This document shows positions 3,035-40,272 of a stretch of DNA of 64,000 nt, piece after piece; the stretch's first letter is position 1; each line of letters begins with the position of its first letter. The notes below the pieces were generated by a model. The model had not been told where the DNA came from and made no database searches. It saw only the letters and a list, made by a program, of their open reading frames with translations. The stretch spans positions 33,951 through 97,950 of the forward strand of contig JAQBRH010000004.1 of NCBI GenBank assembly GCA_028286565.1, in the 5' to 3' direction. Both the position numbers and the translations under genes were made by a program. This DNA is from Parcubacteria group bacterium. Lineage in GTDB: Bacteria > Patescibacteriota > Minisyncoccia > Phycocordibacterales > Zambryskibacteraceae.

Positions 3035-4201
3035 ATGAGAGTTCATTTCAAGCGAAGCTGGAACAAAGCCTTGTTCCCCGTCTACCTCGCGACCTTCTTT
3101 TTCTTTTTTCATTACAACTCGCTCGTCTATGTGAACTCCTCCTACCTCGAGCGGTTCTTCGCGCCGAGCGTGGTCGGGTTTATATATGTGCTCGGCGCGG
3201 TCGGGAACCTCTTTCTGATCTTCCTCGCCCTCAAATGGCTCGCTCTCATCGGGAACCGCAAATTCTTCTCCTATTTCCTCTGCGCTGAGCTCCTCGCGGT
3301 CACGGGCCTCGCTTTTGTTTCGACGCCGCTCGCCATGGCCCTCCTCTTCATCCTCTTCGACAGCACTTCTCTCATGATCCTCTATAGCCTCGATATCTTC
3401 CTCGAGGATGCGACGCCGAAGAACCAGACCGGATCGGTTCGAGGCATGTCGCTTACGCTCGGGAATATCGCCCTCGTCCTTTCTCCGCTTCTCATCGCGG
3501 TCGTCGCGCCGAACGGAGAATTCTCGAGACTCTACTTTATCTCCGCCCTTCTCCTCGCCCCACTCTTTTTCCTCTCGGCCTATTCGTTCAAGGGCTTTAA
3601 GGACGGACACCAGCGATTCGCCGAAGTGCCCCTTCGCGCCTGGTGGAACTCAAAGAACATCCGCCGAGTGACCCTCGTACGCATGGTGCTCGATATCTTC
3701 TACAGCTTCATGGTCATTTATATGCCTATCTATCTCCACGACCATATCGGGTTCGGCTGGGCCTCGATCAGCATCATCTTCACCATCATGCTTCTGCCTT
3801 TTATCCTCCTCGAGATCCCGGTCGGAAAGTTGGCCGACTCGTGGTGCGGCGAAAAGGAGTTCATGACCCTCGGGTTTTTCATTATGGGCACAGCTCTCAT
3901 CATCATCCCTTTCTTCCACAGCGCTTCGATCCTCCTGTGGGGAGGACTTCTGTTCTTATCTCGAGTCGGCGCCGCGATCACTGAAGTGACCACCGAAAGC
4001 TATTTCTTCAAGCATGTGGATAAGCGTGATGCGGGCATGATCTCCGTGTACCGCATGGCTTGGCCGGTCGGATTCATCCTCGGCTCCTTGATCGCTTCAT
4101 TCTCCCTCTCGCTCCTTCCGTTCGAAGCGATGTTCATCATCCTGGCGGTCATTGTATTGAAAGCGATGGACACAAGCACGAAACTACAAGACACAAAATA
4201 A
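3035..4201 (+). CDS. MFS transporter
   Basis: 388 aa, ~12 predicted hydrophobic helices, MFS-like loop motifs. Confidence 0.65.
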   Translation: MRVHFKRSWNKALFPVYLATFFFFFHYNSLVYVNSSYLERFFAPSVVGFIYVLGAVGNLFLIFLALKWLALIGNRKFFSYFLCAELLAVTGLAFVSTPLAMALLFILFDSTSLMILYSLDIFLEDATPKNQTGSVRGMSLTLGNIALVLSPLLIAVVAPNGEFSRLYFISALLLAPLFFLSAYSFKGFKDGHQRFAEVPLRAWWNSKNIRRVTLVRMVLDIFYSFMVIYMPIYLHDHIGFGWASISIIFTIMLLPFILLEIPVGKLADSWCGEKEFMTLGFFIMGTALIIIPFFHSASILLWGGLLFLSRVGAAITEVTTESYFFKHVDKRDAGMISVYRMAWPVGFILGSLIASFSLSLLPFEAMFIILAVIVLKAMDTSTKLQDTK

Positions 4202-29859: not shown

Positions 29860-30074
29860 AAGTTCGAGTCCCTATTGGTTGCTGCCGATCAGGGACTCGC
29901 TCCTTACAGGAACAGGACAGAATTCGTCAGGGACTCGGTCACTCATAAAATTCTCCTGAATTTTTGTGCGACCCCGCCTCGGCCCGCCGGCCTCCGGCTT
30001 TCGAGTCCGCGCGACGCTTCGCATGTGCGAAACTGCGCCTGATCGGCAGCAAAACACGCTGCGCTTTCGTTTTG
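29860..30074. repeat. Mosaic of direct and inverted partial copies of the tRNA-Gln 3' end (T-arm/acceptor)
   Basis: 19-nt direct copy gctgccgatcagggactcg at 29881-29899 (identical to 30075-30093). Inverted T-loop fragments at 29862-29873 and 30003-30012. Inverted copy cctgatcggcagcaaaac at 30038-30055 forms an 18-bp hairpin with the tRNA 3' end. Confidence 0.75.
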
Positions 30075-30145
30075 CTGCCGATCAGGGACTCGAACCCCAA
30101 TTAACCGCTCCAGAGGCGGTCGTCCTACCATTAGACGAATCGGCA
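30075..30145 (-). tRNA. tRNA-Gln (anticodon CTG)
   Basis: Hand-folded cloverleaf: acceptor TGCCGAT/ATCGGCA with U1-A72, D-stem GTCT/GGAC, anticodon stem ACCGC/GCGGT with loop CTCTGGA, T-loop TTCGAGT, discriminator G. Four-nt variable loop. Confidence 0.6.
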
Positions 30146-34460: not shown

Positions 34461-35387
34461 CTATACCTTCAAGTATTTGCGGATGGCGAGGATCGACGAG
34501 ATGCCGCCGATAAGGATGCCTGAGACTACGATTAGGAAGAAGATCTGCGGGAGATTATGGAGATAGTAGCTGAAAATATTCAGGCCGATGAAGAAGTTCT
34601 GGGTGACCTGGCCGAGCCAATAGGTCATCGGCAGGAAGATAAAGAGAGTAAGGATCGCCGCCATGAGGCCATAGATCACTCCCACGACCACGAACGGGCC
34701 TTGAATATAGGCCGTGGACGCCCCCACAAGGCGCATGACGCTGATCTCATCCTTGGCTATATAGATAGTGAGGCGGATGGTGTTAAAGGAGATGAGGACC
34801 GAGATGAGGACGAAGGCGAGGGTGATGGCGAATCCGAGCCGGTGGGCGGCGGCGATGATGCGGGTCAGCTTGTCGATCGCGACCTTGTTCTGATAATAGT
34901 TAACATGATCGAGGATGGTCACTCCGGATGGCGAGATGGTGTTCTTCGAACCCAGGAATTGAGCGATGGCTTCGTACTGCGAAGGATCCTTTGCCTTGAT
35001 GTTAAGGGTCGCGCCGAGCGGGTTGTCCGACAACTCTCCGAGAGCGGCGAGGATCGACTGATCGTTCGCATGCCTCTGTTTGAAGGCTTCAAGGGCGTCC
35101 GCTCGAGAGACATACGTCACGAGCGAGACTTCGGGCAGATTTTCGAGTGAGTGCTTGATCGCCAGGATATCATCCTCCGCTGCTGTCGGGATGAAGGTGA
35201 CGTTGATGTCCACTTTGTTGCGGAGTTCGGAAAGAGAGGTATTCAAAATGGCGCTTCCGAAGATAAGGAAGCCGATGACGAACAGGGTCACCATCATGAT
35301 GAGGACGGAAGCTAAAGAGACCGTGCCGTTCCTCCAGAAGTTAAAGAACCCCGTGCGTATGATCCTTTTTGCGTTTGTCCAAAACAT
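34461..35387 (-). CDS. ftsX: Cell division permease FtsX-like
   Basis: N-terminal TM, large periplasmic loop, three C-terminal TM helices. Adjacent to ftsE. Confidence 0.8.
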   Translation of the reverse strand: MFWTNAKRIIRTGFFNFWRNGTVSLASVLIMMVTLFVIGFLIFGSAILNTSLSELRNKVDINVTFIPTAAEDDILAIKHSLENLPEVSLVTYVSRADALEAFKQRHANDQSILAALGELSDNPLGATLNIKAKDPSQYEAIAQFLGSKNTISPSGVTILDHVNYYQNKVAIDKLTRIIAAAHRLGFAITLAFVLISVLISFNTIRLTIYIAKDEISVMRLVGASTAYIQGPFVVVGVIYGLMAAILTLFIFLPMTYWLGQVTQNFFIGLNIFSYYLHNLPQIFFLIVVSGILIGGISSILAIRKYLKV

Positions 35388-35410: not shown

Positions 35411-36091
35411 TTAAATAAAGTATTTCCCTTCTTTGTCATCCCTGATGATCCTGCCCTTGTCCATGGCGATCACGCGCTTGTTCAATGAGTCTATCACTCC
35501 TTGGTTATGCGTGGTAAGGATAACCGTCGTCCCCAAGTCGTTGATCTTTTTTAGTATCTGCACGACATCATACGTATTCTCCGGGTCGAGGTTCCCCGTC
35601 GGCTCATCAGCGATGATGATGTCCGGCTGGTTGACGAGCGCGCGAGCGATAGCCACGCGCTGTTTCTCTCCTCCGGAGAGCTCATGGGGGAAGTTCCAGA
35701 TCTTCGCTGAGAGATCGACGAGCTCGAGGACGTAGGGCACATCGGACTGGATCTCTTCATCCGACCTCCCGGCGGCTTCCATGGTAAAGGCGATATTCTC
35801 GAAGATGGTCTTGTCCGGCAGAAGGCGGAAATCTTGGAAAACCATGCCGATCTTTCTGCGGTAATCGTTGATCTCCTGCTTTTTCAGAGTATGGATGTCG
35901 GTTGATTCGTAGAAGACCTGGCCTTCGCTCGGCTTCTCTTCGGCGAGGAGCATTTTGAGGAGGGTGGTCTTGCCCGCGCCGGATTGTCCGACTATGGAGA
36001 CGAACTCTTCGGGTTCTATGGTGAGGGTAACGTTTTGGACCGCTACCGAAGTATCCGGGTAGATTTTACTTACTCGGTCAAAGAAAATCAT
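35411..36091 (-). CDS. ftsE: Cell division ATP-binding protein FtsE
   Basis: Walker A GQSGAGKTT, LSGGEKQRVAIARAL signature, Walker B IIIADEPTGNLD. Confidence 0.9.
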   Translation of the reverse strand: MIFFDRVSKIYPDTSVAVQNVTLTIEPEEFVSIVGQSGAGKTTLLKMLLAEEKPSEGQVFYESTDIHTLKKQEINDYRRKIGMVFQDFRLLPDKTIFENIAFTMEAAGRSDEEIQSDVPYVLELVDLSAKIWNFPHELSGGEKQRVAIARALVNQPDIIIADEPTGNLDPENTYDVVQILKKINDLGTTVILTTHNQGVIDSLNKRVIAMDKGRIIRDDKEGKYFI

Positions 36092-36180: not shown

Positions 36181-36546
36181 TTATGCTCGTACCGATTGGT
36201 TAGACGGCAAGAGGTTCGTTTCTATATACATTTTTGCCACCGACCGAAGACGGCGCATAGCCAACGGGCTGTTTGGATCTTTCGGGGTGTTGAGCTGAAT
36301 CAGGTATGAGACCAAAACATAGTAGGCAGCCAGCGCTTCATCCCCGAATGGAGTATCCTGATCCATCTCGTCCAGCTTGGATGGATCGTCTTTACATCCG
36401 GGTATTTCGGATTGGAGAGCAAATGTGAGCTCCTGAACACGCACACTGAATCCCTCCATCAAACTTACACTCACACACAGACCCGTCCGAGCGAACATTT
36501 CCGTAGCACTATTGATCAATCTCGAGCCATCTCTCAATGTAATCAT
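36181..36546 (-). CDS. Hypothetical protein
   Basis: 121 aa, no family recognised. Confidence 0.4.
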   Translation of the reverse strand: MITLRDGSRLINSATEMFARTGLCVSVSLMEGFSVRVQELTFALQSEIPGCKDDPSKLDEMDQDTPFGDEALAAYYVLVSYLIQLNTPKDPNSPLAMRRLRSVAKMYIETNLLPSNQSVRA

Positions 36547-36610: not shown

Positions 36611-37492
36611 TTACAATTTTTCCTCTGCTTCGATGAATTCGTCGAGGTCGCCGTCTTCGAGGACCTTGTCCGCATTCGACGTCTCGACGTTCGTGCGGTG
36701 ATCTTTGACCATCTTGTATGGATGGAGGACGTACGAGCGGATCTGGCTTCCCCATTCGTTCTCGGTCGTCTTTGAGATGTACATCCCGCTCTCCGCGGCC
36801 TTCCTCTCCGCTTCTAATTTTTTATAGAGTTTCGCTTCGAGCATTTCCATGGCGCGCGAGCGATTGTCCGCCTGGCTTCGTTCGCTCTCGACGTGAACGG
36901 CGAGCCCGGACGGGATGTGGACGAGGCGGACGGCAGTCTCTCGCTTGTTCACATTTTGTCCGCCGGGTCCCGAGGACTTTGAATATTCGATCTTGAGGTC
37001 TTCCGGAGGGATGTTCACTTCGCCTTCCTTTTCGAATTTTGGGATGACCTCGACCATGGAGAACGACGTCTGGCGGATGTCACCTTTGCCGAACGGCGAA
37101 ATGCGCACGAGGCGATGGACGCCGGATTCGTTCTTCAGCGTCCCATACGCGCCCTTGCCTTCCACATCGAGGGTGATGTTCCTGTATCCGTTGTGATTGT
37201 TCTCGTTCTTGTTCAAGACGAAATATTTAAAATTCTTTCGTTCAAAGTACTTCATATACATTTCAAGCAGCATGCGGGTAAAGTCTTCGGCGTCGTCGCC
37301 TCCCGCGCCCGAGTAAATGGTCATGACCGCATTGCCCTTGTCATATTTCCCCACACCTTCGAGTTCGTCTTTGAGGTTCTGCAGTTCTTTGATGGTCGCC
37401 TGGGCCTTATCTTTGTTCGACCAAAAATCCGCCGCACTCATCTCGGCTTCAATAGATTCTATTTTCTTTTTGATCTCATCAGGGGATGCCAT
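36611..37492 (-). CDS. prfB: Peptide chain release factor 2 (N-terminally short; no programmed-frameshift leader)
   Basis: SPF motif (RISPFGKG) and GGQ motif (GPGGQNVNK). The start ATG abuts or overlaps the CCA end of tRNA-Thr. Confidence 0.85.
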   Translation of the reverse strand: MASPDEIKKKIESIEAEMSAADFWSNKDKAQATIKELQNLKDELEGVGKYDKGNAVMTIYSGAGGDDAEDFTRMLLEMYMKYFERKNFKYFVLNKNENNHNGYRNITLDVEGKGAYGTLKNESGVHRLVRISPFGKGDIRQTSFSMVEVIPKFEKEGEVNIPPEDLKIEYSKSSGPGGQNVNKRETAVRLVHIPSGLAVHVESERSQADNRSRAMEMLEAKLYKKLEAERKAAESGMYISKTTENEWGSQIRSYVLHPYKMVKDHRTNVETSNADKVLEDGDLDEFIEAEEKL

Positions 37493-37567
37493 GGAGCCAA
37501 AGGCCGGGATCGAACCGGCGACCTATCCCTTACGAAGGGATTGCTCTACCAACTGAGCTACTTTGGC
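37492..37567 (-). tRNA. tRNA-Thr (anticodon CGT)
   Basis: GCCAAAGTAGCTCAGTTGGTAGAGCAATCCCTTCGTAAGGGATAGGTCGCCGGTTCGATCCCGGCCTTTGGCTCCA; canonical cloverleaf with encoded CCA. Confidence 0.85.
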
Positions 37568-37671
37568 GAGTGAGGAACAAAAGAGATGTGTACATATCTT
37601 TTGGTTCCGAACGATGCCAAAGGGAGCGATAGCTCCTCTTGGCAGATTTCGCCCTACGTCTGGGCGGGCGA

Positions 37672-37747
37672 TGGAGCCAAGACCCGGGATCGAACCGGGG
37701 ACCTCTTCCTTACCATGGAAGTGCTCTACCGACTGAGCTATCTTGGC
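37672..37747 (-). tRNA. tRNA-Thr (anticodon GGT)
   Basis: GCCAAGATAGCTCAGTCGGTAGAGCACTTCCATGGTAAGGAAGAGGTCCCCGGTTCGATCCCGGGTCTTGGCTCCA. Confidence 0.85.
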
Positions 37748-37798
37748 ATGCGAAACGTCCTCGAATAGTAGTACAAACTAAGGACTTTTTCAATTATA

Positions 37799-37828
37799 CA
37801 AAAACCCCGCACTCGGCGGGGTTTTTGA
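37799..37828. terminator. Bidirectional rho-independent terminator
   Basis: AAAACCCCGC-ACTC-GGCGGGGTTTTT, perfect 6-bp GC stem with flanking A/T runs. Confidence 0.65.
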
Positions 37829-37835
37829 GGCCAAG

Positions 37836-38009
37836 CTATTGGGTAGCTCCTCCGGTGCCTCCCGTATTGAGGTTCACATCGACCGTGCTTGGGACGGATG
37901 TCCCGCCGCGGTGATAGAAGCCGAAGTAGAATGCGAGGCCGATGATGAGAATGATGACCACAGAGATAAGCACAGTGGTCGCACTTGAGTTGTTGCTTGT
38001 GTTTTCCAT
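37836..38009 (-). CDS. Hypothetical small membrane protein (57 aa, below ORF-track cutoff)
   Basis: MENTSNNSSATTVLISVVIILIIGLAFYFGFYHRGGTSVPSTVDVNLNTGGTGGATQ; single TM. Followed by the 37799-37828 terminator. No clear RBS. Confidence 0.3.
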   Translation of the reverse strand: MENTSNNSSATTVLISVVIILIIGLAFYFGFYHRGGTSVPSTVDVNLNTGGTGGATQ

Positions 38010-39745: not shown

Positions 39746-39995
39746 TGAATTAATATATCAACCAAAATAGAACCTGGCAGATCCTTATATAAGTGTTGCG
39801 GGTACCCGATTTGCACGGATGCCTACAGGTTATGAGCCTGTCGAGGTACTGCTCCTCCAACCCGCTATCCCTATATTATACGCCATCTATTCCAAAAATC
39901 AAGATTTTGTATTATAGTTCCTGGACTTGCCGGTGTACTCTGTACGTCGGCTGCGTTCGGAGATAGAGGGTGTACACATCCTCTCCCCCTCACTT

Positions 39996-40066
39996 GCCGG
40001 TGTAGTTCAATGGTAGAACGGAGGACTCATAAGCCTTAGACAATGGTTCGATTCCATTCATCGGCA
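39996..40066 (+). tRNA. tRNA-Met/Ile2-type (anticodon CAT), elongator-like
   Basis: GCCGGTGTAGTTCAATGGTAGAACGGAGGACTCATAAGCCTTAGACAATGGTTCGATTCCATTCATCGGCA; G1-C72 pair, A31.G39 mismatch in anticodon stem. No encoded CCA. Confidence 0.6.
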
Positions 40067-40197
40067 CAAGGTGTGTTGTGACAGCACAAGAATTCTGTTA
40101 CATTACATCCGATTAGGGCACTTGCGGCAGTACTAAATCGTACATCCGCTCGGCTCGGAATCAATAGAAAAGCAAGCTTCTCAATTGTTCCTCACTT

Positions 40198-40269
40198 GCG
40201 GCTGTAGCTCAACGGTAGAGCACTCCCCTGTCACGGGAGAGGCCGTGGGGTCAGCACCCATCAGCCGCG
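40198..40269 (+). tRNA. tRNA-Asp-like (anticodon GTC) with non-canonical T-loop (GTCAGCA); possibly a pseudo- or atypical tRNA
   Basis: GCGGCTGTAGCTCAACGGTAGAGCACTCCCCTGTCACGGGAGAGGCCGTGGGGTCAGCACCCATCAGCCGCG; good acceptor, D and anticodon arms. T54 and A58 are replaced by G. Confidence 0.45.
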
Positions 40270-40272
40270 CAA

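Follow-up and report, generated by a model that had tools for sequence, protein, structure and literature searches.

A release factor 2 gene whose start codon overlaps the CCA end of a tRNA-Thr gene in a Parcubacteria genome, and its possible expression through tRNA processing

We analyzed a 64,000-nucleotide (nt) stretch of the genome of a Parcubacteria group bacterium (contig JAQBRH010000004.1, positions 33,951 to 97,950; hereafter the window, with coordinates counted from its first base), and in it the gene for release factor 2 (RF2), prfB, together with the two tRNA-Thr genes that precede it on the minus strand (Table 1). The start codon of prfB overlaps the encoded CCA of tRNA-Thr(CGU): according to ARAGORN, Rfam and the open reading frame (ORF) call, a single base, 37492, serves as A76 of the tRNA and as the A of the ATG. 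Read in gene orientation, the junction is ...CCTTTGGCT followed by CCATGGCATCC, or in a longer readout CCTTTGGCT followed by CCATGGCA, and the tRNA-Thr(CGU) precursor is predicted to fold into a clean cloverleaf. An earlier note on this DNA had reported the overlap correctly; its statement that the codon shares its last nucleotide with the tRNA holds in plus-strand coordinates, while in gene orientation the shared base is the first of the codon. The note had also held that no room is left for a promoter or a ribosome-binding site (RBS), and the searches of the upstream sequence agree: the 20 nt before the ATG have no Shine–Dalgarno (SD) motif, the preceding 45 nt have neither a −10-like hexamer nor an SD, and a promoter scan returns no promoter-like site between the candidate at 37793–37765 and prfB.

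The locus has the layout of a mixed tRNA–mRNA operon, with same-strand tRNA genes upstream and a tRNA–ORF interval that contains neither promoter nor terminator. Promoter candidates for a tRNA–tRNA–prfB unit lie ahead of tRNA-Thr(GGU); the TTGAAA/TACTAT pair came from the promoter scan and TGTATAAT was read from the sequence, TGnTATAAT/TATACT being the promoter form that recurs here and in related genomes. The terminator-like hairpin just beyond them closes a small upstream ORF; a new transcription unit starts at this point. The spacer between the two tRNA-Thr genes is strongly folded (−42 kcal/mol, z = −6.3, equalled by 0 of 200 shuffles), and a terminator T-run, a promoter-like site and an Rfam match were all looked for in it and none was found. 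In the Rfam scan, which included this spacer, the tRNAs are the only known RNA elements.

Table 1 Features at and around the prfB locus, in window coordinates.
Feature	Position	Strand	Evidence and remarks
tRNA-Thr(CGU) (anticodon CGT)	37492-37567	-	ARAGORN; Rfam tRNA model 70.7 bits, ending at discriminator U 37495
Encoded CCA of tRNA-Thr(CGU)	37494-37492	-	Counted from discriminator position 37495
prfB start codon AUG	37490-37492	-	Its A (37492) is tRNA A76; discriminator–AUG gap is CC only (GGCU/CC-AUG)
prfB, 293 amino acids (aa), TAA stop	36611-37492	-	Sole long ORF there; SPF codons 37091-37099, GGQ codons 36956-36964
Spacer between the two tRNA-Thr genes, 104 nt	37568-37671	-	Three strong hairpins
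tRNA-Thr(GGU), CCA encoded	37672-37747	-	ARAGORN (GGT); Rfam tRNA 68 bits
Promoter candidates, tRNA–tRNA–prfB unit	37765-37800	-	Extended −10 TGTATAAT (37800-37793); TTGAAA-17-TACTAT (37793-37765)
Terminator-like hairpin and T-run, CCCCGC-CGAGT-GCGGGG-TTTTTGT	37798-37826	-	Read from sequence; weak Rfam terminator-type segment match 37801-37825
Small upstream ORF	37836-38009
Downstream ORF, 121 aa, unknown family	36181-36546	-	SD AGGAG 6 nt before ATG, among the few SD genes here
ftsE	35411-36091	-	Pfam; own TAAAAT box 6 nt before ATG
ftsX	34461-35387	-	Pfam
tRNA	30074-30145
tRNA	39795-39866		In the tRNA-Met / tRNA-Met + tRNA-Asp cluster
tRNA	39996-40067		In the same cluster
tRNA	40198-40270		In the same cluster

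The prfB product is a genuine RF2 that has both the SPF (S132-P133-F134) and GGQ (G177-G178-Q179) motifs and a fold matching solved RF2 structures. It scores 351.3 bits with the RF2 model TIGR00020 vs 220 for RF1, which puts RF2 ahead by more than 130 bits, and Pfam PF03462 (PCRF, 131.9 bits) and PF00472 (RF-1, 125.2 bits) both lie above their gathering scores. The best PDB sequence matches are RF2 chains (E = 3e-73, vs about 1e-47 for RF1), with roughly 35–45% identity to solved RF2s, and an AlphaFold2 model (predicted local distance difference test score 73.7) has Escherichia coli RF2 (1gqe) as its best Foldseek match (E = 4.6e-25). PrfH and ArfB, which likewise combine a reduced N-terminal region with a GGQ domain but lack the SPF codon-recognition motif, were rejected as identities (PrfH 96.8 vs a cutoff of 166.65, ArfB 48 vs 100). 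An RF1 gene was looked for within the window and is not there. The RF2 score falls short of the TIGR00020 cutoff of 370, with the best stretch spanning model positions 111–350, because residues of domain 1 are missing; as a consequence some database copies are named merely 'PCRF domain-containing protein', and the NCBI RF2 model misses short RF2s by score.

This protein has a markedly reduced domain 1. A complete domain 1 comprises helices α1–α4 (about 115 aa); in the AlphaFold2 model only two helices, at aa 4–18 and 27–45, stand ahead of domain 2. The product is about 72 residues shorter than canonical RF2, with about 22 N-terminal residues (helix α1) and about 50 internal residues missing. 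In an alignment to canonical RF2 that was anchored on the DFW and GKYDxG...GAGG motifs, the internal gap lies between '...LKDELEG' and 'VGKYDKG' and corresponds to the distal α3/α4 part of domain 1 (40–50 residues). A purely N-terminal truncation of about 70 aa, as collinear HMMER alignments to canonical residues ~70–120 had suggested, was rejected after this anchoring; the alignments to Bacillus subtilis and Thermus thermophilus RF2 disagree for the same reason, which makes the second helix ambiguous between α3 and α4. M1 aligns with B. subtilis RF2 residue 23 (9fy1 numbering), a position that in the E. coli and B. subtilis genes lies no more than one or two residues from the canonical frameshift site, and in the anchored alignment with the residues just after helix α1. 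The alignment with RF2 orthologues that the earlier note had proposed thus places the start in the equivalent of the post-frameshift part of canonical RF2, and the N-terminal residues are gone as claimed; the shortfall, which had been put at about 25 residues, is about 72.

The short form is found throughout the clade. We compared the window with about 85 related genomes, in which loci L001–L080 represent the 80 best species-level relatives, all of them Parcubacteria/Paceibacteria metagenome-assembled genomes, and make up 81 loci together with the window; the five closest relatives were added individually (L082 and L084–L087, RF2 78–82% identical), as was L081 (RF2 81% identical). All 76 of the 76 species-level orthologues are 287–310 aa long with SPF and GGQ present, and a protein alignment has 113 invariant columns, SPF included. 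The best 120 clusters at 90% identity are nearly all 290–299 aa, and in a library clustered at 50% identity only a handful of representatives are short and collinear (P0121, P0122, P0123, P0127, P0134 and P0136), the next-best being ordinary RF2s of 335–370 aa. In the anchored alignment P0124 (342 aa) has no α1, begins at the post-frameshift position and keeps the internal domain-1 segment, and by this comparison it looks like an intermediate form.

None of the 81 loci has a CUU-UGA-C cassette at the homologous position. Candidate cassettes or an ORF1 further upstream or in another frame were rejected, as the CTTTGA/CTTTAA matches across these loci are scattered and out of context. No ORF1 lies upstream of prfB because the tRNA occupies that place, and an in-frame stop falls inside the tRNA, so that neither a frameshift window nor in-frame coding is present upstream, just as had been described. 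In a survey that makes no mention of Patescibacteria, the programmed +1 frameshift is present in 64% of genomes and absent from 36% of 12,753 RefSeq species, requires an internal SD-like sequence that pairs with the anti-SD, and is lost in correlation with high TGA use (PMC12421855). The 74 long ORFs of the window end in TAA (43), TAG (17) or TGA (14), and with TGA at just 19% of stops, the loss of the prfB frameshift runs against that correlation. Frameshift loss here, in a case outside the RefSeq survey, accompanies loss of SD use and not high TGA, and loss of SD/anti-SD pairing may be a relevant factor. That UGA serves as a stop, which the earlier note had argued from the presence of RF2, is consistent with these 14 ORFs and with a coding density of 90% under table 11. 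Altogether the protein shares SPF, GGQ, the PCRF and RF-1 domains and the fold of domains 2–4 with canonical RF2, and differs from the E. coli and B. subtilis type (PMC12421855) in having no ORF1, SD-like sequence, CUUUGAC cassette, helix α1 or distal α3/α4. We propose, as part of the best explanation of the locus, that the product is a functional RF2 that would decode UGA and UAA and has lost the frameshift leader, helix α1 and distal domain 1.

Directly ahead of the prfB AUG lies a tRNA end in some and a −10 box in others of the 77 loci that have a homology-defined prfB start. These starts were anchored on the invariant Trp24, and homology-defined N-termini were used in place of ORF length because the background is high: 8.6% of random positions have an ORF of 80 aa or more that begins no further than 11 nt away. 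At 18 of the 77 loci (the window and 17 others) the tRNA-Thr discriminator lies 1–11 nt before the start, the tRNA usually being the CGT isoacceptor and twice GGT, and four loci (L002, L008, L011 and L072) have the junction GGCU/C-AUG. A strong −10 box, which matches TATAAT at 5 or all 6 positions and ends 5–9 nt before the start, is found at 27 loci, often as TGnTATAAT, vs 3.3% of all ATGs in the loci; about 14 further loci have a weaker TANNNT box 6–9 nt before the start. An SD of its own precedes prfB at 0 of the 77 loci, the only GGAGG/GAGG matches belonging to the tRNA, in its T-stem and acceptor strand. Among the closest relatives, the tRNA is 9 nt upstream in L085 and 4 nt upstream in L086, while L082, L084 and L087 carry TTGTTATAAT 7 nt before the start.

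In a neighbor-joining tree of the RF2 proteins, the tRNA-abutted state occurs in at least 10 separate lineages that are interleaved with the promoter state. Where a tRNA-Thr lies within 100 nt, the discriminator–start distances form a short class (1, 1, 1, 1, 2, 3, 4, 4, 5, 6, 7, 8, 8, 9, 9, 9, 10, 11, 11 and 11 nt) and a long class (22, 22, 23, 38, 40, 46, 54, 59, 64 and 86 nt), and every locus at 22 nt or more has a −10-like box 6–14 nt before the start. The range of 12–21 nt is empty. At these loci the AUG is thus directly preceded by either the tRNA end or a promoter, and a promoter appears only once room for it exists. With L085 and L086 as two further cases among close relatives, the species-level count indicates that the abutment is not due to chance. 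The "processing-coupled or leaderless translation" that the earlier note had suggested is where this comparison points. In L084 (311–1375, P0024), a gene caller has stretched prfB to 354 aa across the promoter region, whereas homology supports a start at the ATG at 508, which follows TTGTTATAAT by 7 nt; gene callers can mis-place the starts of leaderless genes in this clade, here by over-extension.

Genes other than prfB also occupy this position. Where a different gene separates tRNA-Thr(CGU) from prfB, it is this gene that abuts the tRNA. Two divergent genomes have genes for DedA-like membrane proteins (51% identical) that start 1 nt (TTG; L031, 1572–1650) and 5 nt (ATG; L069, 1712–1795) after the discriminator of tRNA-Thr(CGT), so the abutted slot is not specific to prfB, and further tRNA-abutting ORFs are found in L062, L042 and L052. 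In L081 (543–1503), a DUF3419 gene sits between tRNA-Thr(CGT) and prfB. Its start is 4 nt from the discriminator (GGCU-CCA-G-AUG), and its stop codon shares bases with the ATG of prfB (TAATG), which suggests termination–reinitiation coupling for prfB in that genome.

The start regions of the window's 74 long ORFs indicate how initiation works in this organism. A TANNNT box lies 5–9 nt before the first start codon of 20 of them, typically as TGnTATACT and at exactly 6 nt in 13, against a background of 5.6% of all ATGs (examples are the starts at 3035, 4651, 24137, 26936, 36091, 41534 and 48314), and SD-like 4-mers precede only 6, which is below the 14% background. Evidently, as judged from these sequences, the organism relies on leaderless initiation and hardly uses SD. 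In line with this, the anti-SD motif is retained in just 48% of Parcubacteria (PMC9297842). As the lack of SD is the norm of the genome, the missing RBS is not special to prfB; the missing room for a promoter is. At prfB neither an SD nor a usable leader is present, the upstream sequence being the acceptor and T arm of a tRNA. The SD-less norm and the conserved abutment, also with other genes, had both been missed by the earlier note, as had the internal deletion of about 50 aa and the clade-wide short form of RF2.

The base that follows the discriminator is C in 121 of the 126 tRNA genes of the window and L001–L080, with C only in 72, CC in 15 and the full CCA in 34. Since the full CCA is encoded in just these 34, a CCA-adding enzyme must exist in the clade. 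That C74 is nearly always encoded, and C75 and A76 usually are not, hints at a 3′-processing rule unlike the RNase Z rules of B. subtilis, with the cut falling after C74 or with C74 as a determinant. Because tRNA-Thr(CGU) must be matured, the RNA has to be cut endonucleolytically no more than a few nucleotides from the AUG.

We consider it probable, from this comparison of gene arrangements, that prfB has no promoter or RBS of its own, is co-transcribed with the two tRNAs and receives a near-leaderless mRNA from tRNA 3′ processing. In this model a single precursor would start at the promoter upstream of tRNA-Thr(GGU) and run through tRNA-Thr(GGU), the spacer, tRNA-Thr(CGU), prfB and probably the next genes. 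An endonucleolytic cut that forms the 3′ end of tRNA-Thr(CGU), whether at the discriminator, directly behind it or within the CCA, would at the same time create the 5′ end of the prfB mRNA 0–2 nt before the AUG. The resulting 5′-monophosphate, leaderless or near-leaderless mRNA would be translated by ribosomes that routinely start on a 5′-terminal AUG without SD pairing, and the CCA-adding enzyme would restore a tRNA that loses A76 or C75–A76. After a cut behind C74, which is speculative, the mRNA would begin with C-AUG in the window and with the AUG itself in the four genomes that have GGCU/C-AUG. A precedent for a cut inside the CCA comes from Propionibacterium acnes, also a leaderless-rich bacterium, where differential RNA sequencing located cuts inside the encoded CCA 'always between the Cs' and repair by nucleotidyltransferase was proposed (PMC3848588); unlike the case proposed here, that cut is not linked to an mRNA 5′ end. 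A broader version of the model, to which we give somewhat less than even weight, is that Paceibacteria, having largely abandoned SD initiation, may use tRNA 3′-end processing as the equivalent of a promoter for leaderless mRNAs, which would amount to tRNA punctuation in bacteria: the cut would fall after C74, the CCA-adding enzyme would complete the tRNA, the RNA would start at the AUG or 1 nt before it, and any gene placed behind tRNA-Thr(CGU), usually that of the domain-1-reduced RF2, would occupy a conserved site of expression.

Several points weigh against expression by tRNA processing. The exact CCA/AUG overlap is seen in the window alone, the relatives being 1–11 nt apart, and those among them with leaders of 7–11 nt are strictly not leaderless. 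In B. subtilis, tRNAs with an encoded CCA, which inhibits RNase Z, are matured through a downstream cut followed by 3′ exonucleases; maturation of this type would here destroy the start of the prfB mRNA. As 5′-monophosphate RNA is a substrate of RNase J, which is retained in at least 90% of Candidate Phyla Radiation (CPR) genomes (PMC12641178), the processed prfB mRNA may be unstable. The RNase genes of this genome lie outside the window. Finally, gene anatomy, conservation, the reading frame with its start, and the alternation of tRNA-abutted and promoter-abutted genes are direct observations, while we infer co-transcription, the cut position, the enzyme and translation of the processed RNA.

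A different fate for the same transcript, which we regard as unlikely, is that the unprocessed tRNA–prfB precursor is itself translated by SD-less internal initiation at the AUG, with maturation and translation as competing fates. SD-independent internal initiation must exist within operons in a genome that hardly uses SD, and over its first 60 nt the prfB coding region is rich in A and only weakly folded (−6.3 kcal/mol, no more stable than shuffles). The geometry of the precursor speaks against it: in the predicted fold the AUG begins 3 nt after the stable acceptor helix with no single-stranded tract upstream, which makes internal initiation unfavorable, and placing the AUG in the P site would need the tRNA to unfold. 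A GGAGG in the tRNA 3′ strand does lie 6–14 nt before the ATG in L002, L009, L053 and L072; we rejected it as an SD because it is intrinsic to the acceptor and T stems, where it is buried in helices, occurs as well at loci with the tRNA at a distance from prfB, and is missing in the window tRNA. In addition, tRNA-less orthologues place the transcription start at the ATG with no leader, so that a 5′-terminal AUG appears to be what is selected.

It is quite improbable that a cryptic promoter inside the tRNA-Thr(CGU) gene instead yields a primary leaderless transcript from the ATG independently of processing. Such transcripts are common in this genome and among prfB orthologues, but no TANNNT lies 4–10 nt before this ATG and no promoter-like site is found in or after the tRNA. 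The same is true at each of the 18 abutted loci, between which the sequence of the tRNA 3′ half varies, and the empty 12–21 nt class of distances also argues against promoters within the tRNA.

Translation from Met18 or another downstream codon, with the 51 nt after the tRNA as an untranslated leader, is very improbable even though this methionine is kept in 76 of 80 loci. Upstream of Met18, as far as the stop inside the tRNA, the ATG at 37492 is the only in-frame ATG, GTG or TTG, and 77 of the 81 loci have an in-frame start 19–28 codons before Trp24, usually with an in-frame stop a few codons further up. Codons 5–17 show coding periodicity, with diversities at positions 1/2/3 of 0.50/0.35/0.62, compared with 0.38/0.27/0.54 in the downstream coding block and 0.75/0.75/0.75 in the non-coding flank, and they encode conserved residues (of 80 loci, all have Glu15, 70 have Ile11 and 78 have Leu/Ile14). 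The four remaining orthologues have Ile, Thr or Gln in place of Met18, the same position is an internal Met in Bacillus-type RF2, and no SD is found ahead of it. The earlier note had itself named Met18 as the start that could displace its own; this fails on the evidence above, and the comparison indicates that the ATG at the tRNA is the real start.

That the junction is an assembly artefact, or that prfB is decaying after truncation by a tRNA insertion, is hardly credible even for a metagenome-assembled genome with a TIGR00020 score of 351 < 370, given an identical (100%) protein on a 308-kb contig (P0001, 'prfB [Parcubacteria group bacterium]'), a 287–310 aa form that recurs at all 76 loci and in over 100 clusters formed at 90% identity, the 113 invariant alignment columns, and abutment across independent assemblies.

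Expression of prfB through tRNA processing would resemble the tRNA punctuation of animal mitochondrial DNA, which was reportedly described by Ojala, Montoya and Attardi in 1981 (cited in PMC4633059), in that the start codon lies at or a few nucleotides from the 3′ end of an upstream tRNA and does so among relatives as well (2 nt in the window, 1–11 nt in others). In mitochondrial punctuation, excision of the tRNA is thought to create the leaderless mRNA. Where terminal nucleotides overlap in mitochondria, it is reportedly the tRNA that is repaired, through CCA addition or editing (PMC4284800). The present locus differs in lying on a bacterial chromosome with ordinary promoters and in having an mRNA 3′ end that is not bounded by a tRNA, as protein genes follow prfB. 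Nor is the arrangement used genome-wide: in the loci seen it concerns the gene behind tRNA-Thr and no other, and none of the remaining five tRNAs in the window abuts an ORF.

A bacterial likeness is the E. coli thrU-tyrU-glyT-thrT-tufB operon, in which tRNAs ending in tRNA-Thr are co-transcribed with a translation-factor gene and processing separates the mRNA. The prfB locus likewise places tRNA-Thr ahead of a translation-factor gene in what would be a unit with one promoter. The tufB leader is roughly 100 nt long and has an SD site, whereas prfB begins 2 nt from the discriminator and has none. The arrangement is a member of neither the mitochondrial nor the tufB system, with only its 5′ side bounded by a tRNA and other genes using promoters. 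With the primary leaderless mRNAs of Actinobacteria and others (PMC3848588, PMC4681348, PMC4633059), which have a −10 TANNNT 6–9 nt before the start and no SD, it shares the lack of an SD, and that layout fits prfB at 27–41 of the 77 loci and roughly one in four window ORFs. The window prfB is unlike them in having no −10 box, and in it and about 20 relatives the 5′ end would be a processed one that carries a monophosphate.

A literature search of incomplete coverage, which leaves novelty unproven, returned no bacterial leaderless mRNA that arises from tRNA processing and no description of a short CPR RF2. If the processing model is correct, this would be, as far as we found, the first conserved bacterial case of tRNA excision yielding a leaderless mRNA, a principle linked until now to mitochondria. 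A streamlined, SD-less bacterium would then express an essential translation factor with neither promoter nor leader, and RF2 synthesis would be tied to transcription of a tRNA operon. With two helices in domain 1, the RF2 shared by this clade is a minimal form that occurs naturally and could reveal what this domain is for, domain 1 of RF2 being the part that makes contacts with the L11 stalk and RF3.

Downstream of prfB, the 121-aa ORF is probably co-transcribed with it, and the ftsE–ftsX synteny that follows is conserved in the clade (same order in L082–L087). Relatives such as L002 and L009 have a spacer of only about 20–60 nt between the two tRNA-Thr genes. A divergent cluster of tRNA-Met and tRNA-Met + tRNA-Asp genes (39795–40270) precedes the tRNA-Thr pair by about 2 kb, and the same tRNA-Met/tRNA-Asp set is also found upstream of prfB in L002, L009 and L010, pointing to conserved synteny in a tRNA-rich region.

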